Of a stretch of DNA of 24,000 nucleotides, positions 2,059 through 20,700 are shown piece by piece. This DNA comes from an uncultured Methanomassiliicoccales archaeon. GTDB taxonomy: Archaea; Thermoplasmatota; Thermoplasmata; RBG-16-68-12; JAJISG01. The notes beneath the pieces are model-generated. The model made no database searches, was not told where the DNA came from, and saw nothing but the letters and a program-made list of their open reading frames with translations. Both the position numbers and the translations under genes were made by a program. Numbering within the stretch: position 1 is the first letter of the stretch; each line of letters opens with the position of its first letter. The stretch is taken from positions 52,984-76,983 of the forward strand of contig CAYFYA010000005.1 of the NCBI GenBank assembly GCA_964347325.1, in the 5' to 3' direction.

Positions 2059-2706
2059 ATGCTACGGGAGTGCAGTTCCCATGGATTCTTCCGGGGCGAG
2101 ATCTGCCCCAATTGCGGCAGCAAGGGCAAGTTCCTGCTCAATGAGAGGGAGCTAAACACCCTTGGCCGCACGATGGCGGGAGTCCTGCGCCATTTCCCCC
2201 AGAGGTACGGCCTCGAGATGGACGATCACGGTTGGGTCGACCTCCGGGACCTCGTGACCGCCATCCAGATCAGGCACAGGAAGTTCAAGTTCCTCAAGCC
2301 GCACCACATTATCGCCCTCGTCCAGACCGATCCCAAGGGTCGATACCAGTTCGAAGAGGGACGGGTCAGAGCCACCTACGCTCACTCCATCGACCTCGAC
2401 CTGGACTTGCCCACGGAGGACATCCCCCCGGTCCTGTACTACCCGACCACGGAGGAGGAGTGCAGCATCCTCTTGGAGATCGGGCTAAGGCCCGCGGACC
2501 GGCAGTGGGTCCACATCAGCGACACCTTGGAGAGCGCGACGGAGGCGGGACAGGTGAGGACGGCGGACCCTGTCATTCTCAAGGTCGACGCGGAGAAGGC
2601 GAGGGAGGAGGGAGTTGTGATAAAGAAGGCTGGGAAGTACGTCTACATCACCAAGGAGGTACCGCCAGAGTTCCTCAGCCGCGTCGAGGGACCCGAGGCT
2701 ACGTAA
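2059..2706 (+). CDS. kptA: RNA 2'-phosphotransferase (Tpt1/KptA family) with an N-terminal Cys/His zinc-ribbon-like extension
   Basis: The LRH, VRAxxAHS and RQWVHIS elements correspond to the R-H-R-R catalytic tetrad regions of Tpt1/KptA. The N-terminus has CSSHGFFRGEICPNCG. The C-terminal 8 nt overlap convergent purP. Confidence 0.85.
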   Translation: MLRECSSHGFFRGEICPNCGSKGKFLLNERELNTLGRTMAGVLRHFPQRYGLEMDDHGWVDLRDLVTAIQIRHRKFKFLKPHHIIALVQTDPKGRYQFEEGRVRATYAHSIDLDLDLPTEDIPPVLYYPTTEEECSILLEIGLRPADRQWVHISDTLESATEAGQVRTADPVILKVDAEKAREEGVVIKKAGKYVYITKEVPPEFLSRVEGPEAT

Positions 2707-3856
2707 CTATCTTCCCCACTTCGCCCCTATCTATAGCCATCCGGACCTCTAGGGCGACCCTCCTCCCGGTGCTCATCCGGGAGCGCCATAGGGTGTTCCC
2801 GTAGGGGTGGCCTACAGACATGTGGACATTTGTGCCGCCGCCGATTCGTGGCGAGACGTCGTAGATGAAGAAGTTCATATCCTTGTCCACGCACGTCTGG
2901 AGCGTGAAGGGTCCGATCACGCCCGGGGGGAAGTACCTCTGAGTAGCCTCGACATAAGCCTCCGCCAATGGGAAGACCTTGCTCAGCAGGGACTCCCTGA
3001 GGGTAGCCGAGTTATGACCGCATACGACGTACTCCGGGAGTTTCTCTTCGCCAACCAGCGTGAGTTGCTGCTCCGCAGGCAGCCTCACGTGTCCATCCAG
3101 AGATGTCTCGAAGCGCCAGTCGATGCCCAGGAGCTCCAGCCTCTCGCCCGAATCTTCGAGCGGTGAGTAGAAGAAGTCGAAGTTGAAGACGGGACCGAGG
3201 ATGTACTTCTCCACCCTGGCGACCTCCAGATCCTCCTCGGTTATGACGCCCTGCTCGAGGAGGCTGCCGGCCTTCTCCTCAAATTCCTCAGGGCTTGCGG
3301 CGGTGAAGAAGCCCCGCTCCAGCCGTTTGACCTTGTGAGGAAGCTTAATGATGGCCAAGGAGTCGATCTCATCCGGCGAGGTGTACAGGCGAGGAAAGGG
3401 CAGGCCCGCCTTCTCGAGAATCCAGTAGTAGCCCTTCTCCTCTGTCCTCTCCTCCGTCCGCAAGAGATTCCTGCCGCCTATCATCGGTACCCTGAAGTCA
3501 TCCTCCACCTCCCGCATGCCGCAGTAGGAGAAGAAGGACCTGTTGGGGACGAAGAGGACGTTGCCCTTGCGCAGACGGTCCTGGACCCTCTCCGAGGTCG
3601 CCTCCTTGAAGGACTTGAGGACCACAGCCTCGTCAACAACACCCCGGACGATTCTGCCTTCGGCGTCTCGCACCGCCTTGAAGTACCTCGCGTAGGGCTC
3701 ATGCCTCCCCTCCTGGCATAGCGCAATGGTCTGGAATCCTTCCTCCACGGCCCCGTCACACACGTCGAGAGCCGAGTGGGAGGCAAGGACCCCGATCTTG
3801 GCCCGGTCGAGATCGTACTTATCCAACACACCGAGGATGTCATCTCGTGCCATCAT
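2699..3856 (-). CDS. purP: 5-formaminoimidazole-4-carboxamide ribonucleotide (FAICAR) synthetase, archaeal ATP-grasp PurP
   Basis: ILGVLDKYDLDRAKIGVLASHSALDVCDGAVEEGFQT...GNVLFVPNRSF...GGRNLLRTEER...SPRIGGGTN is the PurP signature layout. The start is placed at the ATGATG at 3856/3853, because a TTTTATTA box (3886-3893) sits 30 nt upstream. The track start at 3901 would lie upstream of that box. Confidence 0.85.
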   Translation of the reverse strand: MMARDDILGVLDKYDLDRAKIGVLASHSALDVCDGAVEEGFQTIALCQEGRHEPYARYFKAVRDAEGRIVRGVVDEAVVLKSFKEATSERVQDRLRKGNVLFVPNRSFFSYCGMREVEDDFRVPMIGGRNLLRTEERTEEKGYYWILEKAGLPFPRLYTSPDEIDSLAIIKLPHKVKRLERGFFTAASPEEFEEKAGSLLEQGVITEEDLEVARVEKYILGPVFNFDFFYSPLEDSGERLELLGIDWRFETSLDGHVRLPAEQQLTLVGEEKLPEYVVCGHNSATLRESLLSKVFPLAEAYVEATQRYFPPGVIGPFTLQTCVDKDMNFFIYDVSPRIGGGTNVHMSVGHPYGNTLWRSRMSTGRRVALEVRMAIDRGEVGKIVT

Positions 3857-3885
3857 AGGCCATCCCGGCTTCATCTCGCCTCGGG

Positions 3886-3893
3886 TAATAAAA
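3886..3893 (-). promoter_or_regulatory. TATA box (TTTTATTA on minus strand) for purP, in the divergent purP / AGPS-like intergenic region
   Basis: This is the only AT-rich octamer between the divergent genes. The 30-nt spacing to the purP ATGATG is consistent with a leaderless or near-leaderless archaeal transcript. Confidence 0.5.
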
Positions 3894-3948
3894 CTCCCCA
3901 AGACACGGTGGAAACCTATTCAAGCTGAGGGACGATGCCACCGCGAGC

Positions 3949-5532
3949 ATGAGGAAGGATATGAGGTGGTGGGGGTGGGGTTCCCCCGATGTACGATATC
4001 CTTCAGAACGGCTGGAGCTTGCCCTTCGCTTCCTTGAGACTCGAGGAATCAAGCTCAGGGAGGCCCAAGAAATCCCGAGTGTGCCATCCCTTCCGCCGAG
4101 TCGGCTCAGGGCGGAAGACCTGGAGGCCCTCGAGGGTGCCTTGGAGGTATCCACAGACGACGAAGTCCGCATCAGTCGCTCCCTAGGGAAGGGCTACCTC
4201 GACCTCCTCAAGGTGAGGCTGGGGCGGGTAGAAGAGTTTACCGATGCCGTGGCCTTTCCAAGGGATTCTGAACACGTGCGCCTCCTATTGGAAACGGCTG
4301 CATCGCGCGGAATAGCCGTTGTCCCTTATGGCGGTGGGACCTCCGTCCTCGGGGGACTCAGACCGTTGAGGGGGCGAAACAGAGCTGTAGTCACCGTCGA
4401 CCTTCGTCATCTGAACAAGGTCCTCGAGGTCGACGAGGTCTCCCTTCTGGCCAGGGTGGAGGCGGGTGTCAGTGGGCCAGAACTGGAGGAGGTCCTCGGT
4501 CGGCACAATATGACTCTTGGCCACTTCCCCCAGTCCTTCCACTTCTCCACTCTCGGTGGTTGGATCGCCACCCGAGCCTCTGGTCATCTCTCGGGAGCGT
4601 ACGGTCGCATCGAGAACATGGTCCAGTCGGTAAGTCTTGTGACACCTCAGGGGACCCTCGTCACAAAGGATGTCCCTGCAAGATCCGCAGGCCCCGAGCT
4701 GCGGGAGCTGGTCCTGGGGTCAGAGGGTGCCTTCGGCATCATCACGGAAGCGGTGGTAAGGGTGCGGAGGAGTCCTGAGGCCAGAGCCAGAAGGGTTCTC
4801 CTCATCCCAGGCTTCACCACGGCCTTGGATGCGGCTCGGGGAATGATTCAGTCGGGAATCGTGCCTTCTCTCTTGCGCATCTCAAACGAGGATGAGAGCT
4901 CGATGATCGCTCACATGGCTGGGCTAGAGGCGGAGGAAGTCCCCTCCATAGTCCTCTTGGGCTTCGACGGCACCAAGGATGACACGGTGGCCTCAATGGA
5001 GACCGCAGTTGAATCCCTTGTAGACGCAGGAGCCCTGGACCTGGGAGAGGAGCCCGCCCTCGTCTGGGAGGAGGAGTACTACACGACGCCATACCTTCGC
5101 GATGACTTCCTTGCCCGTGGCCTCCTGGTTGACACGCTTGAGACGGCCGCATCATGGAGAGGACTGCAAAAGCTTTACGTCGCAGTTCGCCACGCATTGC
5201 TGGACGCGTACTCTCAAGGGGGTGTCCAGGGGTTGGTCCTCTGTCATCTCTCTCACACCTATCGAGATGGCGGCTCACTCTACTACACCCTCATCGCGCC
5301 CCGGGAGCAGGGGAAGGAGGTTGAGCAGTGGTGGGAGATCAAGCGGGCCGCCACAGAGGCGATAATGAGAGCGGGCGGGACCATCAGCCACCATCATGGC
5401 GTAGGTACCGATCACCTCTCCTGGATCTTGGAGGAGCACGGAGAGACTGCCCTCATGGCGCTCAAATCGCTCAAGATAGCCGTAGACCCAAAGGGTATCA
5501 TGAATCCGGGGAAGGTGGTGCGGGAGGAGTGA
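3949..5532 (+). CDS. FAD-linked oxidase of the alkylglycerone-phosphate (alkyl-DHAP) synthase-like family
   Basis: N-terminal MRWWGWG (AGPS RWNGWG-like). FAD_binding_4 region VVPYGGGTSVLGG...VDL..LNKVLEVD. C-terminal SHHHGVGTDH...DPKGIMNPGK, typical of AGPS/GlcD-type vanillyl-alcohol-oxidase-fold enzymes. The stop overlaps the next ATG (TGATG). Confidence 0.8.
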   Translation: MRKDMRWWGWGSPDVRYPSERLELALRFLETRGIKLREAQEIPSVPSLPPSRLRAEDLEALEGALEVSTDDEVRISRSLGKGYLDLLKVRLGRVEEFTDAVAFPRDSEHVRLLLETAASRGIAVVPYGGGTSVLGGLRPLRGRNRAVVTVDLRHLNKVLEVDEVSLLARVEAGVSGPELEEVLGRHNMTLGHFPQSFHFSTLGGWIATRASGHLSGAYGRIENMVQSVSLVTPQGTLVTKDVPARSAGPELRELVLGSEGAFGIITEAVVRVRRSPEARARRVLLIPGFTTALDAARGMIQSGIVPSLLRISNEDESSMIAHMAGLEAEEVPSIVLLGFDGTKDDTVASMETAVESLVDAGALDLGEEPALVWEEEYYTTPYLRDDFLARGLLVDTLETAASWRGLQKLYVAVRHALLDAYSQGGVQGLVLCHLSHTYRDGGSLYYTLIAPREQGKEVEQWWEIKRAATEAIMRAGGTISHHHGVGTDHLSWILEEHGETALMALKSLKIAVDPKGIMNPGKVVREE

Positions 5533-7175
5533 TGGAATCCGGCTTCAACTGGAGACGACGAGAGGAGGGATTGGAGGCCCTTGATAAGGAGTTCGACGTC
5601 ATAGTCGTCGGCGGCGGAATCAACGGCTGCGCGGTGGCGAACGAGACAGCGAGGAGAGGTCAACGCGTTCTCCTCTTGGAGAAGGGGGACATCGGCAGCG
5701 GGACCAGCGGTAGGTCATCACGCCTGATCCACGGAGGGTTGAGGTATCTCAAACATGGACAGGTTAAGGTCGTTTGGGACGGGTGCAGAGAGCGCCACTG
5801 GTTGAGGACCCACTACCCCTACCTCGTTCGCCCGGTTCGGTTCATCATACCCTTCTACGAAGGCGAGGGAGAGGGGCCTGTCCTGACTTTTCTGGGACTC
5901 TGGATCTACGATCTCCTCTCGGCCTTCAGGAATGTCAGCAGGCACCGTCGTCTGAGGCGAGGGGAGGTCCTCGCCGAGGAACCAAGACTGCGATCAGGGG
6001 GGCTCCAGGGTGGTGCCGTCTACTACGACTGCATGACCGATGACTTCAGGCTCGTTCTCCTCAACGCCGCCATGGCGAACGCTGCGGGGGCGTACGTACT
6101 CTCGCACTGCCGCGTGGAAGCCCCCACACTCGAAAACGATCGCGTGGTTGGGGTACAGTTCACCGACCTGTTAAGCGGCGAACCCCATTCGGCCCGAGGT
6201 CGAATCGTGATCAACACCACGGGCCCATGGAGCGACCTGATTAGAGTCGGGATTGGGGCCGCAGAGCCGATGTTGAGGCCGACCAAGGGCGTTCACCTAA
6301 TCGTCCCACGGGAGAAGGTAGGTAACCGCAACGCCGTGGTCATCAGATCTCCGACGGATGGACGAGTCCTCTTCACCCTCCCATGGGGGAAGCACACCAT
6401 CATCGGGACCACCGACACCGACTTCCCAGGTGACCCGGACGAGGTTCAGGTTGAGGGGTGGGATGTGGACTACCTGCTCGAGGCAGTGAATGGCGCCTTT
6501 CCTCGGACCGAACTTCGGCGCAGTGACGTAGTGAGCACCTACGCAGCCCTCCGCCCTCTGGTCGGGCGACAAGGTGTGTCCGAAGGAGAGGTAAGCAGAG
6601 ACTTCAAGATCGTGGAAGATGCGCCGGGGCTTGTGTCCATTCTGGGCGGGAAGCTCACCACCTACAGGCCCTCAACGCTTAGGGTTGCAGACATCGTTTC
6701 GCGGATAGTATCCAGGCGTCCGGACAAGATGAGAAGAGGCACTGGCACCCGAAGGGGCATCCCGGAGGAAGACATTCTCGGCATCAAGAAAGAGGCCGCA
6801 CAGAGAGCCGCCCAACTCGGATTGGATCAAGAGGTCGCCGGCTCTCTGGTCGCTTCCTACGGCCCACACTCCGGGTCGATCCTGGAGCTCGCCTCTCAGG
6901 GGGACCTCCGCAGGAGGATTGTTCCGGACCTCCCTCGGATCATGGCTGAGATCGTCTATTCCGTCGAAAGTGAAATGGCTCTGAGATTGGAGGACGTTCT
7001 TGTCCGTCGAACCAGGTTGTTCTACGAAGATACAGGGCACGGGTTGGGGGTAGCCAAGGAGGTCGCGGAACTGATGGCAGCCAGGACGGGGTGGAGTGAC
7101 GAGCGAGTTCAACGAGAGGTGGACGATTACCGTGGCCTCGTGGAATCGATGAGGGCCTCTCTGGAGGGGGGCTAG
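5532..7175 (+). CDS. glpD: FAD-dependent glycerol-3-phosphate dehydrogenase/oxidase (GlpD/GlpO family)
   Basis: From the internal ATG: MESGFNW...FDVIVVGGGINGCAVANETARRGQRVLLLEKGDIGSGTSGRSSRLIHGGLRYL (dinucleotide fold plus the GlpD signature), followed by a long C-terminal GlpD-type helical domain. The 68 upstream codons in the track overlap the preceding gene and are not credible. Confidence 0.85.
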   Translation: MESGFNWRRREEGLEALDKEFDVIVVGGGINGCAVANETARRGQRVLLLEKGDIGSGTSGRSSRLIHGGLRYLKHGQVKVVWDGCRERHWLRTHYPYLVRPVRFIIPFYEGEGEGPVLTFLGLWIYDLLSAFRNVSRHRRLRRGEVLAEEPRLRSGGLQGGAVYYDCMTDDFRLVLLNAAMANAAGAYVLSHCRVEAPTLENDRVVGVQFTDLLSGEPHSARGRIVINTTGPWSDLIRVGIGAAEPMLRPTKGVHLIVPREKVGNRNAVVIRSPTDGRVLFTLPWGKHTIIGTTDTDFPGDPDEVQVEGWDVDYLLEAVNGAFPRTELRRSDVVSTYAALRPLVGRQGVSEGEVSRDFKIVEDAPGLVSILGGKLTTYRPSTLRVADIVSRIVSRRPDKMRRGTGTRRGIPEEDILGIKKEAAQRAAQLGLDQEVAGSLVASYGPHSGSILELASQGDLRRRIVPDLPRIMAEIVYSVESEMALRLEDVLVRRTRLFYEDTGHGLGVAKEVAELMAARTGWSDERVQREVDDYRGLVESMRASLEGG

Positions 7176-7176
7176 G

Positions 7177-8094
7177 ATGCTGATCGTCGTGAACCCCAAA
7201 GCTGCGGGGGGAGAAGTCGGTCGAAGTTGGCCGCAGCTTGAGCCTCGTCTCAGGTCACTGGTCGACATGCCGAGGGTAGCAACCACCACGGGGCCTCTCT
7301 CAGCCATCGGATTCATCGAGGATGCCCTCGCACAGGGTGAGACGGAAATCGCCATCGTCGGCGGCGACGGGACCGTCAACGAAGCCGTCAATGCCCTCAT
7401 CGAAGGCGATCGACCTGTCCTGAAGGAGGCACGTCTCACGATTATCCCCGTGGGTAGCGGCACGGATTACGCCAAGACGCTGGGACTGCCGAGAGGTCTC
7501 GAGCACGCCGAGGCGATTTTTCGGGCTACAGCCACTAGGCTTGTCGACGTGGGGAAGGCGACCTTTGTCAACTTTGAAGGAGAGACGGAGACCCGCTACT
7601 TTGCGAACATCTTGGAGGCTGGTGTGGGGGCAGAGGTGGTCGAGAAGGTCAATCGAAGCTCGAAGCTCCTCGGAGGTACGGCGGCATTCCTGTGGGCCAT
7701 CGTAACGACACTGCCTGGGTATGAGAACCGGGCGATGGAAGTCGAGGTGGATGGTGAGGTGATTGCCGTCGGCCTCATGAACAGTGTGATCATTGCGAAC
7801 GGCAGGTTCTACGGAAGTGGGCTCCAGCCAGCGCCCATGGCTGAGGTCGACGATGGCACTTTCGAAATAGTCCTCATCGGGGATTTCACGCTCGGGGAGG
7901 CGTTAAGCAATCTTGGCAAGCTTCGAACGGGAGACCACCTGGAGCATCCCAAGGTCAGCCATGCTAGGGGGAAGCGTGTCGTCGTTTCGGCCGAGCGTGA
8001 GGTCTTGGCGGAGATGGACGGAGAGGTCGTAGGCGGACTACCGATGGAGGTGGACCTGCTGCCTCGCCTCCTCCCCGTTCGCGTCCTCCGCTGA
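7177..8094 (+). CDS. Diacylglycerol-kinase-family lipid kinase (YegS/BmrU/LCB5-like)
   Basis: MLIVVNPKAAGG...IAIVGGDGTVNEAVNALI...PVGSGTDYAKTLG...EMDGE is the DAGK catalytic-domain layout. The ATG lies 1 nt after the glpD stop. Confidence 0.8.
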   Translation: MLIVVNPKAAGGEVGRSWPQLEPRLRSLVDMPRVATTTGPLSAIGFIEDALAQGETEIAIVGGDGTVNEAVNALIEGDRPVLKEARLTIIPVGSGTDYAKTLGLPRGLEHAEAIFRATATRLVDVGKATFVNFEGETETRYFANILEAGVGAEVVEKVNRSSKLLGGTAAFLWAIVTTLPGYENRAMEVEVDGEVIAVGLMNSVIIANGRFYGSGLQPAPMAEVDDGTFEIVLIGDFTLGEALSNLGKLRTGDHLEHPKVSHARGKRVVVSAEREVLAEMDGEVVGGLPMEVDLLPRLLPVRVLR

Positions 8095-8126
8095 AGGCCT
8101 TATTACTCATCCCCCTTTCTCATGCG

Positions 8127-8684
8127 ATGCCCCTCCCCGCCGTCTACAGGGAATCGCTACCTGTTCTACTATTGGCGGGGCTAGGTCTGGTAGCGGCCGG
8201 CCTCGTCCTCGGAGGAATGAGGGATGTCCTGGAACGTACTCCTGGGCTCCTGGTTATGGTGCCGGCCCTCATCGCCCTTCGCGGCGGCATCAGTGGCGCC
8301 CTTGGCGCGCGGATGGGCTCCGCCTTCCACATGGGTCTAATCTCGGAGGGCAGCCTCTGGAACGACGAGGCTCAGCAGAACGTGCTCGCTGCCGTTCTTT
8401 TGAGCGCCCTCTTCTCCTTCCTGGCGGGCGTATTGAGCTACGCGACCTCGATTCTACTAGGCCTCCAGACTGCAAGTCTCGTGTCCCTTGCGCTCATCGC
8501 CACGCTTGCCGGAACCCTGGCTGGCATTTCGCAGGTTGGCATAACCTTCGGCATCATCCTGGCTGCCTTCCGTTGGGGTCTCGATCCAGATAACGTTACC
8601 ACCCCCACCCTGGCAACCGTCGGGGATGTCATCACAATCCTCCTCCTCTTCGTGATCGCCCTGTCCATGGGAGGCGTTGCATGA
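8127..8684 (+). CDS. MgtE/SLC41-type divalent cation transporter membrane domain, half-size subunit A (185 aa)
   Basis: Multi-TM protein with PALIALRGGISGALGARMGS and GLDPDNVTTPTLATVGDVITILLLF, which match MgtE-family transmembrane-domain motifs. It has no cytosolic N/CBS domains. Confidence 0.7.
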   Translation: MPLPAVYRESLPVLLLAGLGLVAAGLVLGGMRDVLERTPGLLVMVPALIALRGGISGALGARMGSAFHMGLISEGSLWNDEAQQNVLAAVLLSALFSFLAGVLSYATSILLGLQTASLVSLALIATLAGTLAGISQVGITFGIILAAFRWGLDPDNVTTPTLATVGDVITILLLFVIALSMGGVA

Positions 8685-9238
8685 CGTTCTACTCCTACAG
8701 GACCATCATGGGCGAGAGCTTCCTGGCGCTGACCTTTCTTCTGGTTGTCACCCTCCTTGCGGGCCACCTCCTCAACGGGGCTGCCGACCTCTTCCTGGCG
8801 GCCCCCTTTCTCCTCATCCTGGTTCCCGTGGTCAACGGCATCGGCGGGAACGTTGGTACTGTCCTTGGATCCCGAATCACCTCGGGCCTCTATACAGGGA
8901 CCATCGCCCCGAAGCTGGGGGACAGGGGGCTCCTCCGGAACGTCAGAGACGGCGTCATCCTCTACATCGTAACCTTCACCGTTCTGGCAATGTTCATATA
9001 CGGATTGGGGCCATTAACAGGAGTCGTACCACCCTTTGGAGTGGGGGTGCTCCTCTTAGTCATGCTCTCCACCGGTCTGATGCTCGCGGGGGTCCTTACC
9101 GCGGTGACCGTCTCGGTGGCCTTCCTATCCTTTTCCAGGGGCCTAGACCCCGACAACTTCGTCACTCCGGTGGTGACGACTATGGGAGACATCGTTGGAA
9201 TTGGATTCCTGGTCTTGGTTCTGGGGGTGCTACTGTGA
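8681..9238 (+). CDS. MgtE/SLC41-type divalent cation transporter membrane domain, half-size subunit B (185 aa, paralog of the previous gene)
   Basis: VPVVNGIGGNVGTVLGSRITS and GLDPDNFVTPVVTTMGDIVGIGFLV, with the same length and layout as subunit A. ATGA overlap with the upstream gene. Confidence 0.7.
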   Translation: MTFYSYRTIMGESFLALTFLLVVTLLAGHLLNGAADLFLAAPFLLILVPVVNGIGGNVGTVLGSRITSGLYTGTIAPKLGDRGLLRNVRDGVILYIVTFTVLAMFIYGLGPLTGVVPPFGVGVLLLVMLSTGLMLAGVLTAVTVSVAFLSFSRGLDPDNFVTPVVTTMGDIVGIGFLVLVLGVLL

Positions 9239-9843
9239 AAGAGAGCTTTGAGGAAGTCGAGTACGAGCCTACGAGCGTCAAGGACCTGTTGGTTGAGATG
9301 AAGGATACCAGCGAACTGATTATCGACCTGGCGTACGCGGCGGTAATGTTCGACAGTGACGAGCTGGCGGAGGAGGTCCGTCACCTGGAGAGCAGGATGG
9401 ACTTCCTGAGGTACCAGATGCGTATGATCGCCCTCATGGCTAGCAGGACGAGAGAGGACTCCGAGAGGCTGGCGGGGATCCTTCAGGTTGCTTCGGCCGC
9501 GGAGACCATCTCGAACGCGGCGGGCGACATCGTGGACCTCCTGGAGCAGAGGATAGAAGCTAGGCCCTTCCTGCCCTTCGTCCTCCAGGAAGCGGAGGAG
9601 AAGATCCGAATCCTGCGAATGAGCAAGAAGTCCTCCATGCTAGCGCGGGACGTAGCGGACCTTCGAGTTGAGTCGGAGACCGGGATGAGGATTATCGCCA
9701 TCCGCCGCGGAAGACGTTGGAACTACGACCCGCCTAGCAGCACAGTCCTCAGGGAAGGCGACCTGTTGATTGTTCGTGGGACGGAAGACGGCTACAACAG
9801 GCTGACGAGATACGCGTCTGGAGAGGAGGGTTGGCCGGGGTGA
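9235..9843 (+). CDS. Cytosolic PhoU-like helical domain + TrkA-C (RCK_C) domain protein, copy 1
   Basis: Only the last 202 codons of track ORF 8677..9843 are credible, with a GTG start at 9235 overlapping the upstream TGA. The sequence VKDLLVEMKDTSELIIDLAYAAV...ETISNAAGDIVDL is followed by VADLRVESETGMRIIAIRRGRRWNYDPPSSTVLREGDLLIVRG (TrkA-C pattern). Confidence 0.65.
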   Translation: MKESFEEVEYEPTSVKDLLVEMKDTSELIIDLAYAAVMFDSDELAEEVRHLESRMDFLRYQMRMIALMASRTREDSERLAGILQVASAAETISNAAGDIVDLLEQRIEARPFLPFVLQEAEEKIRILRMSKKSSMLARDVADLRVESETGMRIIAIRRGRRWNYDPPSSTVLREGDLLIVRGTEDGYNRLTRYASGEEGWPG

Positions 9844-9847
9844 TCGC

Positions 9848-10402
9848 TTGGATATAGAGGACATTCTCCTTGAGATGAAGGACACGAGCGAGCTGATGGT
9901 GGACCTGGCCTACTCTGCCCTCCTCTACGACAACGAGGAGATCGCCCGCCAGGTCCTGGAGCTGGAGAGCCAAGTAGACGAATGGGACGAACAGGTTCAG
10001 AAGCTGGCGGTGGAGAGGGCGATCGAGGATAGAGACGTGGAGAAGGCCCTGGTCTTCATACGACTCGCGGACTCCATCGAGACAGTAGCCGACGGTGCCA
10101 TCGAGATCGCCGACGTCGTTCTGAGGGATATCGAGCCCCATCCTGTGGTGGCAGCCGCATTGAAGGAGTCAGATACTGCAATCACAACCGTGAAGGTGCC
10201 TGCAGCATCTCCGGCGGCGGGCAGAACGCTGGGGGAGATGAAGCTGGCTTCAGAGACCGGCATGTGGGTCATCGCCATTCGCAGGGGAGAGAGATGGATC
10301 TACGGCCCCGACGAGAACACTCGGGTGGAGCCGGGAGATCTGCTCATCGCCCGCGGACCCGTGGAAGGCGAGGAGGAGCTTAGGCACTACATCGGTGGAT
10401 AG
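9848..10402 (+). CDS. Cytosolic PhoU-like helical domain + TrkA-C (RCK_C) domain protein, copy 2
   Basis: Paralog of the previous gene: ILLEMKDTSELMVDLAYSAL...ETVADGAIEIADV...LGEMKLASETGMWVIAIRRGERWIYGPDENTRVEPGDLLIARG. TTG start. The stop codon overlaps the 3' end of the convergent tRNA. Confidence 0.65.
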   Translation: MDIEDILLEMKDTSELMVDLAYSALLYDNEEIARQVLELESQVDEWDEQVQKLAVERAIEDRDVEKALVFIRLADSIETVADGAIEIADVVLRDIEPHPVVAAALKESDTAITTVKVPAASPAAGRTLGEMKLASETGMWVIAIRRGERWIYGPDENTRVEPGDLLIARGPVEGEEELRHYIGG

Positions 10403-10472
10403 CCCCGGGCAGATTCGAACTGCCGTCACGAGGTCCAGAACCTCGCATGATTGACCGCTACACTACGGGGCT
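10400..10472 (-). tRNA. tRNA-Gln(CUG), copy 1 (73 nt, no encoded CCA)
   Basis: Hand-folded minus-strand sequence AGCCCCGTAGTGTAGCGGTCAATCATGCGAGGTTCTGGACCTCGTGACGGCAGTTCGAATCTGCCCGGGGCTA. Acceptor AGCCCCG/CGGGGCT (A1:U72), discriminator A. Anticodon stem CGAGG/CCTCG with loop TT-CTG-GA. T arm GGCAG-TTCGAAT-CTGCC. Confidence 0.85.
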
Positions 10473-10495: not shown

Positions 10496-12184
10496 CTAGG
10501 AGCGGTTCACGCCAGAATCGCGTTTCTGCATCTTCGCCCATGGGTCGCGGAGCGTCGCTGTCCTGTTCAGCACCAACCGATCATCTTCAGTATCGGGGTC
10601 CACGCAGAAATAGCCATTCCGTTCGAACTGGAATCGTGAGAAGGGCCCCAGCCCGCGAACCGCGGGCTCGACCTTGCAGCCCATCAAGACCTTGAGAGAC
10701 TCTGGGTTCACGAAATCCTTGAAGTCCCTGCCCCTCTCACCGAGTGGGTCCGATACGTTGAAGAGCTTGTCGTAGAGGCGCACCTGGGCATCGACAGCGT
10801 GTTCAGCCGAGACCCAATGCAGCGTGGATCGGACCTTCCTGCCGTCGGGGGCGTCTCCCCCTCGCGTGGCTGGGTCCACCGTGCAGCGAAGTTCCACTAC
10901 CTCCCCACCTTCCTTGATCGCCTCCTGGCACGTGACCAGGTAGGCGTACCTCAGCCTGACCTCCCGACCCGGTGCCAATCGGTAGTACTTCTCCGGAGGG
11001 TCTTCCATGAAGTCTTCCGCCTCGATGTAGAGGACGCGGGAGAAGGGCACCTTGCGGGTGCCAGCACTCGGATCCTCCGGATTATTCACGGCATCGAACC
11101 ACTCCACCTTGGCCTCCGGGTGGTTCTCGATAACCAGTCTCAGAGGGCGCAGGACACCCATGAATCGCGGCGTGGTCCTGTTGAGATCTTCCCGTACACA
11201 ATGCTCCAAGAATTCGAAGTCGACCGTGCTGTGGACCTTGGCAACGCCGATTCGACTGCAGAAACTCCTGATGGAAGCGGGGGAGTAGCCGCGGCGGCGC
11301 ATCCCACTGATAGTGGGCAAACGAGGGTCGTCCCATCCGTCGACGTAGCCACCCTCGACGAGTTCTAGGAGCTTCCGCTTGCTCATCACCGTGTAAGTCA
11401 GGTTGAGGCGTGCAAACTCGATCTGCCGCGGATGGTAGACACCAAGCTCCCCCAGGTACCAATCGTAGAGGGGACGATGGTCCTCGAACTCCAGGGTGCA
11501 TAGGGAGTGGGTGATGCCCTCGATGGAGTCTTCCAGGCCGTGGGCCCAATCGTAGGTTGGGTAGATGCACCACTTGTCCCCGGTGTTATGGTGGGTGGCG
11601 TGAAGGATCCTGTACATCACGGGATCTCGCATGTTCATATTCGGATGGGCCATGTCGATCCTAGCGCGCAAGACCTTCTCCCCCTCGGAGAACTCGCCAG
11701 CTCGCATCCGCTCCAGCAGTTCTAGGTTCTCACCGACAGACCGCTTCCTGTGGGGGCTCTCGATTCCAGGGGTTGTCAGCGTCCCTCGCTGCTCGCTGAT
11801 TTGCTCCGCCTGCAGGTCGTCCACAAAAGCCTTGCCCTTCTTGACCAGCTGGACCGCATAGTTATACATCTGGTCGAAGTAGTCGGAGGCGAAGTAGAGG
11901 CGGTCATCCCAGTCGAAGCCGAGCCACTTCACGTCCTCGATGATCGACTGGACGTACGTCTTCTCCTCTCTGAGGGGGTTCGTGTCGTCGAAGCGGAGGT
12001 TGCAGAGGCCTCCATACTCCTCAGCGACGCCGAAGTTGAGGCAGATCGACTTGGCGTGGCCTATGTGGAGGTAGCCGTTGGGCTCCGGTGGGAAGCGAGT
12101 GTGCACTCGACCCTCGTATCTGCCCGTCTGGTTGTCCTTATCGATGATCTTGCGGATGAAGTCCGTTGGAGGCTCCGATTCCAT
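10496..12184 (-). CDS. glnS: Glutaminyl-tRNA synthetase, bacterial type (562 aa)
   Basis: It can be aligned by eye along its full length with E. coli GlnS as remembered: [134 protein letters not shown]. The start is placed at MESEPP (12184) because the 28 extra track codons run into the upstream tRNA gene. Confidence 0.9.
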
Positions 12185-12211
12185 GGCAGCCCACTCTGAG
12201 GATGCTGGAGA

Positions 12212-12282
12212 TAGCCCCGGCCGGATTTGAACCGGCGCCTGGGGATCCAGAGTCCCATATGCTGCCACTACACCACGGGGCT
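12212..12282 (-). tRNA. tRNA-Gln(CUG), copy 2 (71 nt, no encoded CCA)
   Basis: Hand-folded minus-strand sequence AGCCCCGTGGTGTAGTGGCAGCATATGGGACTCTGGATCCCCAGGCGCCGGTTCAAATCCGGCCGGGGCTA. Same acceptor stem and discriminator as copy 1. Anticodon stem (T)GGGA/TCCC(C) with loop CT-CTG-GA. T arm GCCGG-TTCAAAT-CCGGC. Confidence 0.8.
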
Positions 12283-12308: not shown

Positions 12309-12316
12309 CTCTAAAT
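12309..12316 (-). promoter_or_regulatory. TATA box (TATTTAGA, preceded by purine-rich GGAAAGG) for the tRNA-Gln / glnS / tRNA-Gln unit
   Basis: Minus strand reads GAGGAAAGGTATTTAGAGACAACTTGGACTGAGACTTAAGGAGC followed by the tRNA 5' end. The box ends 27 nt upstream of tRNA position 1, the canonical archaeal spacing. Confidence 0.55.
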
Positions 12317-12423
12317 ACCTTTCCTCAATTGCGCGGCACGGACCGCTTCAGGCAGGTGGGCTGACATCCACCGCAGCTCCGTAGGGGGGCCACATTATCA
12401 GGGAGGTCTTGCAGGCGGGAACT

Positions 12424-14010
12424 TCAGTCTCGGCTGGCCTCATCCAATCGAGAGAGGACGAAGTCCCTGTCCAGGACGACGAGCAACGGTGCGGCCCTGG
12501 GACCTGATGGCTTACCTAGAAAAACCGTGTAGAGAGCGGCGAAGAACCTCTTCGTCGAAACTCGCAGGGTTCCGCTGCCCGTGAGCTCCACCATGGCATC
12601 CTTCACGCTCCCCTCCAACCAGGGGATGTCCTCCAGCCGACCCCGCAGGGCGGCCAACGCTTCTCTTTCCTTGCTGGAGAGGCCCTCCCGCACCTCAGCG
12701 GGCAAGGTCTCTTGTATCTGAAAGCGTGCATCTTCCGGACCATAGTTGGTCACCCACAGTAGCGACTGTTCAAGCCGCTTCCCAAGCAGCTCCCTCTCCG
12801 CCTGCGTGAGAGACCTATCCAGGAGTCCAGTGTCCTCCAGCCGCCTTGTGGACCAGTCGAGACGGCCGTCAGGAGGTGCCGCTTGAGCCATAATAGATGC
12901 ATGGCGATAGGCAACCTGGAAGGGCATCTCAGAAGGGGGCGCACCGAGTAGAGATAGCGAGTATGACCTAGCCTCAGGCGACTCGCCACTGAAGAACGCG
13001 GCCTCACCTTGGTCATAGGCCTGATGATACAAGTCCATCTTGGCAAGGTCCAGGACGACCCTGCGGCGGATCGGGATGTTGGCATACAGGAAGCGGAGGA
13101 TCTCGGGCTCCGCCATCTCCAGCCACTCCTCGGGCCCGAACCCCACGAAGTCTGAGCTGTCCATATCTCCTCGGTCCTGACCGTTCTCCGATAGGCCCAC
13201 CCACTCGTATGGAATGCCCAAAGGCGGCTTAATCCCAATGACGTCTTCAGCGATGGCAGCACAGCTCTCCCGGGAGCCACCTGGCGCCGCGTGGTCCTTC
13301 CCGAAGGGCTCCACATCCACCTTAAGCAGGGCCCAGAGGGCAGGCCACTCTACCCGCCAGTTCAGTTTGCCCAGACTCAGGTGTGACGTCCCGCTGTGGC
13401 CGCACCCGCACTCATAGTCGACCTCGGCCGCACGAACCTCGAGGGCCCTGGCCTGGCCAACTCGATGACACTCATCGCACAGAGGCTCGAAGGGGACCCA
13501 GCCCTCTGGATGGGGGTTACGGGGCCTGTAATCGTTGAGTATCCGCCTTATCTCCTCCGTCAGGGGCAGTATTCGTCGGACGAGATCAATCATCTCCTCT
13601 CGCTCGTAGATCTCCGTCGTCGTCGTAACCTCGACGCCGGGAGCAAAGCGCTGCAGCGAGGAGCCGAAGCCCTCCCAGAAGTGGTCCACCCAGTTCCCAT
13701 GGCACCCGTGGGGGTCAGGAACGTCGATCAGCCGCCAGCCCGTGTAGGCCTTTCCTTCATCTCCAGCGAACTGTGCGACCTGTTTGGGACTTCCCTTCCA
13801 CGGGTCCTGCGTGTAAAGGACGAGGTGCTGGACTACCTCCTTCCCCTCATCCCTGAGGTGCGAGGCGATGAAGTGGTTGAGGACGATCTCTCCACGCAGC
13901 CTTCCGACGTGCTGGAGGCCCGACACGGAGAGGCCCGCGTTGCAGACTACCTTCGACTTGGACGCTAGGAAAGCGTCTACGGAGTGGGCAAGCTCATCGA
14001 ACCAGTGCAT
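12424..14010 (-). CDS. lysK: Class I lysyl-tRNA synthetase homolog (528 aa) with a non-canonical KMSKS loop
   Basis: MHWFDELA..., SGLQHVGRLRG (HVGN-type HIGH motif), VPDPHGCH, a CxxC...CxC zinc-like insertion, LNWRVEWPALW, EPFGKDH, and C-terminal FFAALYTVFLGKPSGPRAAPLL all follow the class I LysRS layout. The KMSSSKG position reads DMDSSDF. Confidence 0.8.
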   Translation of the reverse strand: MHWFDELAHSVDAFLASKSKVVCNAGLSVSGLQHVGRLRGEIVLNHFIASHLRDEGKEVVQHLVLYTQDPWKGSPKQVAQFAGDEGKAYTGWRLIDVPDPHGCHGNWVDHFWEGFGSSLQRFAPGVEVTTTTEIYEREEMIDLVRRILPLTEEIRRILNDYRPRNPHPEGWVPFEPLCDECHRVGQARALEVRAAEVDYECGCGHSGTSHLSLGKLNWRVEWPALWALLKVDVEPFGKDHAAPGGSRESCAAIAEDVIGIKPPLGIPYEWVGLSENGQDRGDMDSSDFVGFGPEEWLEMAEPEILRFLYANIPIRRRVVLDLAKMDLYHQAYDQGEAAFFSGESPEARSYSLSLLGAPPSEMPFQVAYRHASIMAQAAPPDGRLDWSTRRLEDTGLLDRSLTQAERELLGKRLEQSLLWVTNYGPEDARFQIQETLPAEVREGLSSKEREALAALRGRLEDIPWLEGSVKDAMVELTGSGTLRVSTKRFFAALYTVFLGKPSGPRAAPLLVVLDRDFVLSRLDEASRD

Positions 14011-17706: not shown

Positions 17707-20700
17707 CTATGGCCAGTCAAAGCTGAAGAGTGCCCAGGAGTAAGACAAGTAAGGCGTTACGACTTCCGTGAAATTCACATCCACAGGCGTATCCTCAATA
17801 TCGGTTATTCCAAAGGCAAGGGGGCCATAGCCGAGTGAGAATTGCCTACGATCCCTGTCGCCGTAGGCGAGACCGAAATCAATAGGTCCATCGAGGGATA
17901 GTCCAGTGGTGGGCGTAGCAAGTACAAGGTATGCGTCTATGCCCGCATCCGTTATGTAGAACGATAGCGCAGGCAACAAGGTGACCTCCGCGCCTGGCCC
18001 TTCTCCGAAGGGGAGAGTGATGGCCACCTCCACCGTCACGAAAACTCCCAGGACGCTGCCGGAGGGAACATTCACCCCGCTAACGAGGAGATCATAGTTG
18101 CTGGGGTCAAAGATTTCTGGCCAGGCAAGGAAGCTGGACAAGTCCGGCAGAGTAAAGGCGAGTTGAACGCCCGTCAAAGTCTCTATTTCATCTATGAACG
18201 AGTTGAAGAGAGCCTGCAAGGTCGCGACGTTCATGTCATCGACTAGGACCGCAACGTCGGCGGCCAAATCCAGAAGCCACTCAACGGTCCGATCGCTCAT
18301 GTCCTTCACACTCTGCGGGATCGGGAGGTGCTGAATCCCTGGGCGCAGTATGTCGTATGCAAGGCTCACCACGTCTTTGGCCGCTACAAGTCCGTTTGCG
18401 ACGAAATCGGCTGCAACCTTGAAACCGGCCTCCAGAAGCTCGACGGGACCAGGGATCTGCAGTTCGTTGACGGATTCGTTCAGAAGGCCGGATACATCTC
18501 TGAGTGCACCGTTCACATCGAGATACGGGGCGAGGAAGCGAGACTGCACGCCAGCGAAAGTCTGTATGCCAGAAAGGATGGCCTCGATGGCTGGCCGTAG
18601 GATCTGCTCAATTACCCAAAGGGCGCCGTCTAGGAGTAGGTCGAGAGCCTCCCTTCCGAGGTCCAAAAGGATTTCCAAGGCCTGAGTCGCGAAATCGTAT
18701 ACCGCGTCGAGAGCATCGGCAACGCCTGCAATGTTTGTCCTAGACTCCGCACTGTTGTCATTGCTGTCCCACGCCCTCACCTTCACATCGAAGCCGTGCC
18801 AGATGGCGCTCCCGATATTGACCTCATGTGAGAACCAGCCCACTTTGATGAAGGCCCTATGAACCTTCACGTTTCCGTTGATGTCTATTCTTACGGTATC
18901 AAGCGTGGTTTCGCCATCCTCGACTTTGAACGTTCCTCGTACCTTCACCCAGTCCAGGACCTCCCTATATCCCGTGACCACCGTCTCGTAGACGGTCCTC
19001 ACGACCCTGTCCCACCGCAGGGTGAGGACATTCCATACGCTCTCGGTTACAGTCCTTTTCACCCTCTCGTAGATCGGCTCGAGGGAAATGTGCACGTCCA
19101 CCGATATGGTGAAATCTGTTATGCTGGGCGAATTGCGCTCTACGATGAGAGGAGCGGGATCCACATGGTCCAATAGCCCGTCCCCGTCCGTGTCGCGGTG
19201 ACGGGGATTCGTACCAATGACAAATTCGTCGTAGTCCGTCAGCAGGTCGCCATCCGAATTGATCCTGGTCGGATCTGAGGTAACCGGTAGCTCCTGGATG
19301 TCGTCCACCCGGTGTATGATGAAGACAATCCAACCATTGTATTCGGTGCCGTCGATTAGGCCATCGCCGTCGGTGTCCTTGTCGAGGGGATCGGTGGAGG
19401 CAAAGAACCACTCATCGTCTGCCAGGTGGTCACCGTCCGTGTCCTGCAGTGTGGGGTTCGTACCATCGTTGTATTCCCACCAGTTCTGGCGGCTATCACC
19501 GTCCTTATCCTTCCACTGATCAACCGAGTCGTAAGCGATGAGGTTGAACTCCAGTTCCCAAGCCGTCGGCATCCCGTCTCCATCGTCATCACTATCCTGT
19601 ATGTTCCAGATGCCATTGCCATCGAGGTCGTGCGTGGCATAGAACTCACCCAGCTCATACTCTTCCAGATTCGTTAGGCTATCGCTGTCGAAGTCAGCGG
19701 CGGCGTCGGTTCCGTTCAGCGGGTCCAATCCGGTGAACTGCCCCCAGCGGGCTTCAAACTCGTCAGGAATCCCATCGCCGTCGGTGTCAGGGTCATTTGG
19801 ATTCGTGAAGTATGTCTGCTCCTCGGCGTCATCCAGCCCATCATCGTCACTGTCCGGGTCCAAGGGATTGGTTATGTAGCCATCAGCTCCACTGTTAACC
19901 TCCTCGAAGTCATCTAGACTGTCCGAGTCGCTATTGGCATCCAGGGGATCGGTTCCATGGATTATCACCTCATCACCGTCCGAGAGGAGGTCGTCATCGG
20001 TGTCACTGTCGGTGAGGTTCGTCTCCCCAGATGCAAAGCCGTCCCACTGCCCGTTGTGGTTGGCATCCTCCGTCCCATCCAAGAGGCCGTCTCCGTCCAT
20101 GTCCGGATTGGTATCGTCGGGGTCAACGCCCGTTATGAGCCCATCATCATCCTGGTCGTTGTCGAGAGGGTCCGTCTCAATCACAGGATTGAGAGGATCA
20201 AAGCGAGGATCGCCTGAAAGGTCGGGATCCAAAACGCCATTGCGATTGAAGTCCTCACCTTCGGCCGGATCGTAGAGGTTGTCGCTATCGAGGTCCACCC
20301 ATCCATCGTACAGAAGGGCATCGCTATCAGAATTCTGATCTCGCGCGTTGATCCACCCGTCTCCATCAGTGTCCCCGTCCCAGGCGTTTTCGGTACCATC
20401 TAGGATTCCGTCGCCGTCAGAATCGGGGTCCAGCGGGTCCGTCTCCCTGAAGGTGGCGGGGGTATCGTAGGCTCCGTTGCGATTCCTGTCCTCAATGCCA
20501 TCCAAGAGCCCATCATTGTCGGAGTCCGGATCGGCGGGGTCCGTTTCCCCCGGATCCGTAAGCCCATCTTTGTCGGTGTCTTCGATTCCGTCGAGGAGCA
20601 AGTCGTCGTCAGAGTCGGCATCTAGAGGGCTCGTCCTCAACCCTACCTCTATCCCATCCACCAACAGGTCGTCGTCCGTATCACTGTCCGTTGGGTTCGT

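Follow-up and report, generated by a model that had tools for sequence, protein, structure and literature searches.

A bacterial-type glutaminyl-tRNA synthetase gene set between archaeal-type tRNA-Gln genes in a clade of uncultured Thermoplasmatota

A large clade of uncultured Thermoplasmatota appears to have fixed a functional glutaminyl-tRNA synthetase (GlnRS) of bacterial ancestry, an enzyme that most likely attaches glutamine directly to archaeal-type tRNA-Gln. The gene, glnS, was studied in a stretch of 24,000 nucleotides (positions 52,984 to 76,983 of contig CAYFYA010000005.1, assembly GCA_964347325.1) from an uncultured Methanomassiliicoccales archaeon, referred to below as the window. 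It occupies positions 10496..12184 of the reverse strand, stop codon included, and lies between two tRNA-Gln(CUG) genes. Loci of relatives and of comparison genomes are cited by L numbers and individual proteins by P numbers.

Identity and integrity of glnS

The open reading frame (ORF) starts at ATG 12184, ends at TAG 10496-10498 and encodes 562 amino acids. Its assignment as a bacterial-type GlnRS draws on the glnS equivalog hidden Markov model, on conserved residues and on the ratio of nonsynonymous to synonymous substitution (dN/dS). The protein scored 696.8 bits against the glnS equivalog NCBIfam TIGR00440, some 270 bits above the cut-off of 425.8. Pfam recognised the Rossmann catalytic domain of a class I (Ib) synthetase, tRNA-synt_1c (PF00749, 368.5 bits), and both C-terminal beta-barrel anticodon-binding domains (PF03950 and PF20974). 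The best PDB matches, both full length, were GlnRS of Pseudomonas aeruginosa (5BNZ, 709 bits) and of Escherichia coli (689 bits), followed by the Deinococcus radiodurans, human and yeast enzymes; GluRS (glutamyl-tRNA synthetase) structures scored far lower. The match to solved GlnRS structures (E ~1e-212) settles the predicted fold. An earlier note on this DNA, made from the letters alone, had described an intact bacterial-type GlnRS with HIGH and KMSKS motifs, and the description stands: YLHIGH occupies residues 38-43 and VMSKR residues 266-270.

The window protein was aligned with 17 other members of the Thermoplasmatota clade and numbered according to E. coli GlnRS. Twelve residues were invariant in all 18 sequences (R30, H40, H43, D66, Y211, C229, Q255, K270, R341, R402, R410 and Q517), and of these R341, R402, R410 and Q517 belong to the U35/G36 anticodon pockets of the E. 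coli complex. Two other positions varied, with Leu or Val at 136 and Asp or Asn at 235. The active site of the window protein is that of a glutamine-specific enzyme, Cys229 replacing the Arg of GluRS in company with His215, Arg30, Tyr211 and Gln255. Cys229 and His215 are GlnRS signatures, His215 serving to hold Arg30, and the 132-141 loop with Leu136 is the device by which bacterial GlnRS opens the weak first base pair of tRNA-Gln (PMC2978374). This unpairing loop reads RGTLTTPG in the window protein and RGTLTQPG in E. coli GlnRS. The bacterial character of the protein is further apparent in its length of 562 residues, in an alignment that begins at residue 5 of E. coli GlnRS with no eukaryotic N-terminal extension, and in its clustering with bacterial sequences.

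Values of dN/dS (Nei-Gojobori) were 0.12 against L081, whose protein is 86% identical, and 0.05-0.06 against L001 and L085, so that glnS is under purifying selection. A version of 590 amino acids, starting from GTG 12268 (10496-12268, reverse strand), exists as record P0001 in the NCBI-derived protein collection. It is an over-extension, since it overlaps the upstream tRNA-Gln gene and homologues begin at ATG 12184.

The protein belongs to the GlxRS superfamily and gives weak matches to GluRS and GluQRS models, as might a GluRS-like or non-canonical paralogue (non-discriminating, GluQRS-like or moonlighting) that is no true GlnRS. Such an identity is highly improbable. While the glnS cut-off was exceeded by a wide margin, both archaeal GluRS models fell below theirs (gltX_arch, 340.7 against 401.75 bits; a second model, 295.7 against 516), and the protein combines the two GlnRS signatures with Gln255 and a full bacterial anticodon pocket. 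Nor is the protein an archaeal non-discriminating GluRS, as it carries both the unpairing loop and Cys229. By these profile and residue matches the window gene is an intact GlnRS of bacterial type and not a GluRS, as the earlier note had proposed.

The top NCBIfam model for the protein was PRK14703, the GlnRS/YqeY fusion (841.6 bits, cut-off 681). Of the 769 model positions only 13-562 are matched; the protein stops at residue 562 and so lacks the YqeY tail, and Pfam found no GatB_Yqey domain in it. Judged by this alignment, 'GlnRS/YqeY domain fusion protein', the name given by the Prokaryotic Genome Annotation Pipeline (PGAP) to the ~560-residue proteins of the archaeal clade, is a misnomer.

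Distribution and origin of archaeal GlnRS

Over 120 clusters 75-86% identical to the window GlnRS came up in a search for homologues. Named clusters included 'glutamine--tRNA ligase/YqeY domain fusion protein [Thermoplasmata archaeon]', Methanomassiliicoccales archaeon, Thermoplasmatales archaeon and Euryarchaeota archaeon RBG_16_68_12. Several homologues of the Thermoplasmatota clade lie on contigs of 1.9-3.2 Mb, closed genomes with this GlnRS include CP070767.1, CP070739.1 and CP070724.1, and both PGAP and IMG already name the gene glutamine--tRNA ligase in metagenome-assembled genomes (MAGs) of Thermoplasmata. GlnRS is therefore lineage-wide in a large clade of uncultured Thermoplasmatota and is routinely annotated there. 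A scan of species-representative genomes revealed a second archaeal group in Heimdallarchaeota, including the complete genome of Ca. Heimdallarchaeum aukensis, at 58-61% identity to the window GlnRS.

The window GlnRS was 56-67% identical to 74 bacterial GlnRS, the highest values being for Binatia, Phycisphaerae and Acetivibrio, and on average ~45% identical to eukaryote-like GlnRS, which in this comparison carry long N-terminal extensions. Trees were built by neighbour joining (NJ) with a simple distance correction and 200 bootstraps from 104-105 sequences and ~545 columns. The Thermoplasmatota, Heimdall and eukaryote-like clades each received 100% bootstrap support. Monophyly of the bacterial sequences to the exclusion of the archaeal clades occurred in 0.5% of bootstraps, the sister group of the Thermoplasmatota clade had a median size of three sequences, and a grouping of Thermoplasmatota with Heimdall received 42-47%. 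The archaeal enzymes thus branch from within the bacterial diversity, a pattern best read as horizontal transfer out of bacteria, and the acquisition suggested in the earlier note agrees with both the bootstraps and the identities.

The reverse direction, in which GlnRS was ancestral in these archaea, vertically inherited, and passed from archaea to bacteria, would account for its presence in two distant archaeal phyla. It is nevertheless very unlikely given that the archaeal clades are narrow, with bacterial sequences of many kinds branching around them, that bacterial monophyly is so rarely recovered, and that according to reviews the gene is missing from most archaea.

Three residues bear on whether one transfer or two took place. 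The combination H180/W213/Y401 occurred in 17 of 18 Thermoplasmatota sequences and two of three Heimdall sequences, and in none of the 74 bacterial GlnRS; the nearest bacterial approaches were those of Phycisphaerae L006 (HWW) and of an Acidimicrobiales MAG (HWF). This is a hint of a link between the Thermoplasmatota and Heimdall enzymes. In the E. coli complex, position 180 is next to Pro181 of the acceptor-stem loop and position 401 is next to Arg402 of the G36 pocket. H180, W213 and Y401 may be considered candidate substitutions adapting the enzyme to archaeal tRNA-Gln.

tRNA-Gln genes flanking glnS

Both flanking tRNA-Gln(CUG) genes were predicted by ARAGORN and lie on the same strand as glnS. 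The upstream gene (12212..12282, reverse strand; 71 nt; Rfam tRNA, 62.5 bits) has a short D-loop and is termed type A; the downstream gene (10400..10472, reverse strand; 73 nt; 59.8 bits) has a longer D-loop and is termed type B. Only 27 nt separate the 3' end of the upstream tRNA from the glnS ATG, and 23 nt the glnS stop from the downstream tRNA. The two tRNAs are 73% identical to each other, with T-arms GGTTCAAATCC (type A) and CAGTTCGAATCTG (type B). They have in common the CUG anticodon, A1:U72, G2:C71, C3:G70, G10, G37, A38, A73 and the lack of an encoded CCA. With A1:U72, A73, no encoded CCA and the other shared features, both are archaeal-type. The earlier note had remarked on A1:U72 tRNAs nearby; these prove to be the two tRNA-Gln(CUG) genes immediately beside glnS, their glutamine identity and the cassette they form with glnS having escaped it.

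Orthologues of the upstream tRNA occur 5' of glnS in L001, L002, L081, L085 and L086, and orthologues of the downstream tRNA 3' of glnS in L081, L083 and L086. Between the window and L081, compensatory changes have altered the 49:65 pair of type A and four of the five anticodon-stem pairs of type B, which speaks for functional tRNAs. In L081, the closest relative, the downstream tRNA-Gln(CUG) (4200-4272) carries C33 (loop CCCUGGA), a position at which U is near-universal.

Conservation and probable expression of the cassette

The arrangement was compared across 13 loci of the Thermoplasmatota clade, namely the window, L001-L003, L026, L081-L087 and L112. Among the matches listed from a metagenome scan, L086, L087 and L112 belonged to the archaeal clade and the remainder were mostly bacterial. 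In 12 of the 13 loci a tRNA-Gln gene lay no more than 350 nt from glnS, as against 5 of 150 bacterial loci, where the five tRNAs were of bacterial type (U1:A72, G73). Two of three Heimdall loci also have a tRNA-Gln(UUG) gene 72-111 nt 3' of glnS. The usual Thermoplasmatota layout is CUG, glnS, UUG (L002, L003, L085 and L112), the UUG gene of L084 lying ~1 kb downstream, and the sub-lineage formed by the window, L081 and L086 has the layout CUG, glnS, CUG. One origin considered for the downstream CUG tRNA was a simple T34C substitution in the UUG gene found in relatives. It was rejected because the tRNA has a different body, type B, and this body also carries CUG in L003, L026, L083 and L086. 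This conserved tRNA-Gln/glnS cassette is apparently a feature not described before.

The discriminator base is A73 in the window lineage and G73, the determinant for bacterial GlnRS, in a subclade comprising L003, L084, L087 and L112. In L112 (metagenome contig Ga0209636_10000108, 3859-6040), tRNA-Gln(CUG, G73), glnS, tRNA-Gln(UUG, A73), tRNA-Gln(UUG, G73) and tRNA-Glu(UUC) follow one another, placing side by side two UUG isodecoders with differing discriminators. A tRNA-Glu gene stands beside the cassette in L003 and L026 as well.

Two unusual tRNA predictions were encountered in these loci. The Heimdallarchaeota MAG contig L023 (JAUWEG010000059.1) contains a third tRNA-Gln-like gene (6538-6612, forward strand; Rfam tRNA, 48.8 bits) situated between its glnS-tRNA-Gln(UUG) pair and a tRNA-Gln(CUG) gene. 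Its acceptor reads AGCCCTG...CAGGGCT-A-CCA and its anticodon arm is aberrant, with a 5-bp stem and a 6-nt loop, UUUAGG; it could be a UUA-type (ochre-reading) tRNA-Gln derivative or a pseudogene. In L002, ARAGORN reported an 89-nt 'tRNA-Stop(tta)' (3132-3220, reverse strand) which on inspection by eye looks like an intron-containing tRNA-Asn(GUU) and not like a suppressor.

A TATA-like box, TATTTAG, was recognised by eye within aaaggtatttagag at 12311..12317 of the reverse strand, 28 nt 5' of the upstream tRNA; the window sequence that holds it, upstream of the first tRNA, is aaaggTATTTAGag. A similar box (aaaggataaatagag) occurs at the matching place in L002 and in L085, both with the close counterpart aaaggATAAATAGag, and the box is presumed to be the promoter of the cassette. 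The spacer between the tRNA and glnS is 27 nt in the window and L081 and 4 nt in L085. Spacers of this size leave no room for a separate promoter, and the tRNAs and glnS are probably co-transcribed as a tRNA-mRNA-tRNA precursor.

Proposed charging of tRNA-Gln

In the mechanism proposed, a single archaeal TATA-like box would drive tRNA, glnS and tRNA as one transcript, so that enzyme and substrate would be expressed together. Leu136 of the unpairing loop would open the weak first base pair of archaeal tRNA-Gln, and the glutamine-specific site (Arg30, Tyr211, His215, Cys229 and Gln255), together with the U35/G36 pockets, would glutaminylate the tRNA directly. Bacterial GlnRS requires a weak 1:72 pair that Leu136 can open (PMC2978374), and A1:U72 of the archaeal tRNAs would already satisfy the unpairing mechanism. 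We infer that these particular flanking tRNAs are charged in this way, with consequences for the route through GluRS and the amidotransferase GatDE. When set against the E. coli identity set for GlnRS summarised in PMC9976931, the window tRNAs share G2:C71, G10, U35 and G36 and differ at 3:70, 73, 37 and 38.

Several observations weigh against direct charging by a transferred enzyme. The first concerns the tree, which is of the NJ kind only and whose bacterial sequences were drawn from best hits and so are biased towards the closest. Secondly, both flanking tRNAs read CAG only, though CAA accounts for 34 of the 162 Gln codons (21%) in the window genes, so that a further tRNA-Gln(UUG) must be encoded elsewhere in the genome. 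Lastly, G73 and G3:C70 are identity elements of E. coli GlnRS, and the window tRNAs have A73 and C3:G70; their charging would need an adapted enzyme. The G73 of the subclade beside the A73 of the window lineage looks like an ongoing co-adaptation of tRNA and enzyme.

Alternatively, GlnRS may coexist with the ancestral non-discriminating GluRS and GatDE, the tRNA-Gln isodecoders being partitioned between the two routes by D-loop length (short or long) or discriminator (A73 or G73). The presence around glnS of two different tRNA-Gln(CUG) bodies in the window, L081 and L086 would fit such a division, as would the adjacent A73 and G73 UUG isodecoders of L112 and the move of its subclade to G73. 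In most loci, however, the flanking tRNAs are simply CUG and UUG isoacceptors. A1:U72, which is kept everywhere, could equally speak for a retained GatDE, since A1:U72 and the D-loop of tRNA-Gln are reported as GatDE determinants (PMC9499178), or be explained by the unpairing mechanism of GlnRS. Neither gatD nor gatE (asparaginase, GatB_N) appeared in the Pfam lists for ~20 kb around glnS in L081-L085, regions that make up about one to a few per cent of each genome and are uninformative genome-wide. Coexistence with such partitioning is possible, though less likely than not.

A more far-reaching version is doubtful, less probable again than partitioned coexistence. Here tRNA-Gln/glnS/tRNA-Gln would be a self-contained module for decoding Gln that entered once from bacteria and then spread between Thermoplasmatota and Heimdallarchaeia, the isodecoders of some lineages being split between GlnRS and a retained GatDE. 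The shared H180/W213/Y401 and the linkage of glnS to tRNA-Gln would then mark a single origin. If true, two naturally orthogonal systems for charging with Gln would operate in one cell.

Genomic context

The genes around the cassette point to an archaeal chromosome. A class I (archaeal-type) lysyl-tRNA synthetase (LysRS) is encoded at 12424..14010 of the reverse strand (TIGR00467 lysS_arch, 270.5 bits, cut-off 147.55) and is the conserved upstream neighbour, its adjacency to glnS being kept in L001, L002, L081 and L085. PurP, the archaeal FAICAR synthetase and the conserved downstream neighbour in relatives, lies at 2699..3901 of the reverse strand, as determined from NCBIfam/Pfam-type profile matches and synteny. 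Other neighbours in the window are PyrD, a DUF885 protein, a phosphoribosyltransferase, the archaeal-type D-aminoacyl-tRNA deacylase DtdA (PF04414) and Tpt1. G+C content is ~0.60 and even over the glnS locus. The order PyrD, DUF885, phosphoribosyltransferase, LysRS, tRNA, glnS, (tRNA), PurP, with Tpt1 and DtdA next, is found again in four independent sources: a Thermoplasmata MAG (L001), a MAG chromosome of 1.99 Mb (L002, CP070767.1), a JGI metagenome contig (L081) and an ENA scaffold (L085).

These features bear on a further explanation, that the contig is bacterial, mis-binned or chimeric and the archaeal GlnRS an artefact of assembly. The window protein is, after all, 60-67% identical to bacterial GlnRS, and one member of the clade, P0047, carries the label 'Petrotogales bacterium'. 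The explanation is effectively refuted by a gene order common to at least five independent assemblies, the closed 1.99 Mb chromosome among them, by archaeal-type tRNAs 23-27 nt from glnS, by the uniform G+C content, and by PurP, DtdA and class I LysRS as archaeal marker neighbours. The contig is on this evidence a genuine archaeal one and no chimera. The archaeal neighbourhood described in the earlier note was thus upheld by lysS_arch, PurP, DtdA, Tpt1 and the synteny with CP070767.1, and the bacterial or chimeric contig against which it had advised a check was ruled out. P0047 itself is encoded on a contig of 6.2 kb and its GlnRS falls inside the Thermoplasmatota clade beside P0083 and P0120; it probably represents a mis-binned archaeal contig.

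Between the downstream tRNA and PurP the window has a block of 6.5 kb (3949-10402) that is absent from L001, L002, L081 and L085 and is, by this comparison, a lineage-specific insertion beside a tRNA gene. It encodes a GlcD-like FAD oxidase, a GlpD-like glycerol-3-phosphate dehydrogenase, a YegS-type lipid kinase, an MgtE-like protein and two PhoU/TrkA-C proteins. At the other side of the window an ORF on the reverse strand (17707-23991, at least 2094 amino acids) runs to the window end with a G+C content of 0.55-0.58, compared with ~0.60 elsewhere. Pfam detected no domain in it, save one sub-threshold bacterial TSP3 repeat, and the product is probably a giant surface protein.

Relation to published work

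According to reviews from 2020 to 2022, GlnRS is missing from all known archaea; these reviews argue that archaeal tRNA-Gln, with A1:U72 and A73, is unusable by GlnRS, hence no transfer into archaea (PMC9499178, PMC7373986, PMC8007984). One review words the absence as applying to 'almost all archaea'. PMC8879553 refers in passing, with Furukawa 2017 (J Mol Evol) as its source, to a transfer of GlnRS 'to Archaea and Bacteria', and a 2024 preprint in passing lists GlnRS beside cox genes in Heimdallarchaeia (bioRxiv 10.1101/2024.07.04.601786). Our literature searches found such passing remarks only, and no publication describing Thermoplasmatota GlnRS or the tRNA-Gln/glnS cassette. The earlier note had asked whether GlnRS was already annotated and described in this lineage: annotated it routinely is, and a describing paper was not found. 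That database annotation already exists tempers the novelty of the gene; what is unexpected is the archaeal domain.

A selected, lineage-wide bacterial-type GlnRS between archaeal-type tRNA-Gln genes provides a natural counter-example to the statement that archaea lack GlnRS. The argument for a barrier to transfer becomes directly testable, since synthesis and assay are feasible for the enzyme, the A73 tRNAs and the G73 variants of the sister subclade. For genetic-code engineering the system supplies a candidate GlnRS/tRNA pair whose identity rules are unusual, and it is also a case study of how a cell may switch from tRNA-dependent amidation to direct charging.

Comparison with known systems

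The window protein has the same length and domain order as E. coli GlnS (1GTR/1QTQ) and P. aeruginosa GlnRS (5BNZ), with 56% identity to E. coli GlnS across 543 residues. In common with the E. coli enzyme it has HIGH, MSK, Arg30, Tyr211, His215, Cys229, Gln255, the unpairing loop with Leu136, Arg341, Arg402, Arg410 and Gln517. The tRNAs differ: those adjacent to glnS in the window, presumably its cognates, have A1:U72, C3:G70, A73, G37 and A38, whereas E. coli tRNA-Gln has U1:A72, G3:C70, G73, A37 and U38. From bacterial GlnRS in general the system is set apart by its archaeal host, the H180/W213/Y401 triple and the embedding of glnS between tRNA-Gln genes. The GlnRS/YqeY fusion family (PRK14703; D. 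radiodurans GlnRS, 2HZ7) supplies the best model and the PGAP name, but the window protein is without the YqeY tail.

The linkage of glnS to tRNA-Gln is not exclusive to archaea. Three bacterial loci, L029 (labelled Bacteroidales, tRNA at 5648-5721), L119 (5797-5870) and L122 (2288-2361), have a tRNA-Gln(CUG) gene on the same strand 60-130 nt 3' of glnS. L119 and L122 are metagenome contigs with a near-identical tRNA. Unlike the window cassette, these loci have a single tRNA of bacterial type (U1:A72, G73) and no flanking pair, and such linkage is rare among bacteria (5 of 150).

GlnRS of Heimdallarchaeia, represented by Ca. Heimdallarchaeum aukensis (CP084166.1), is also bacterial-type and 57-61% identical to the window protein, with H180/W213/Y401 in two of three sequences and a tRNA-Gln(UUG) gene nearby in two of three; it nevertheless forms a separate clade with 100% support and has another gene neighbourhood. 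Archaeal non-discriminating GluRS (3AII) acting with GatDE arrives at the same end product, Gln-tRNA-Gln, on A1:U72 tRNAs. That route, however, takes two steps via Glu-tRNA-Gln, and its GluRS is without the unpairing loop (PMC2978374).

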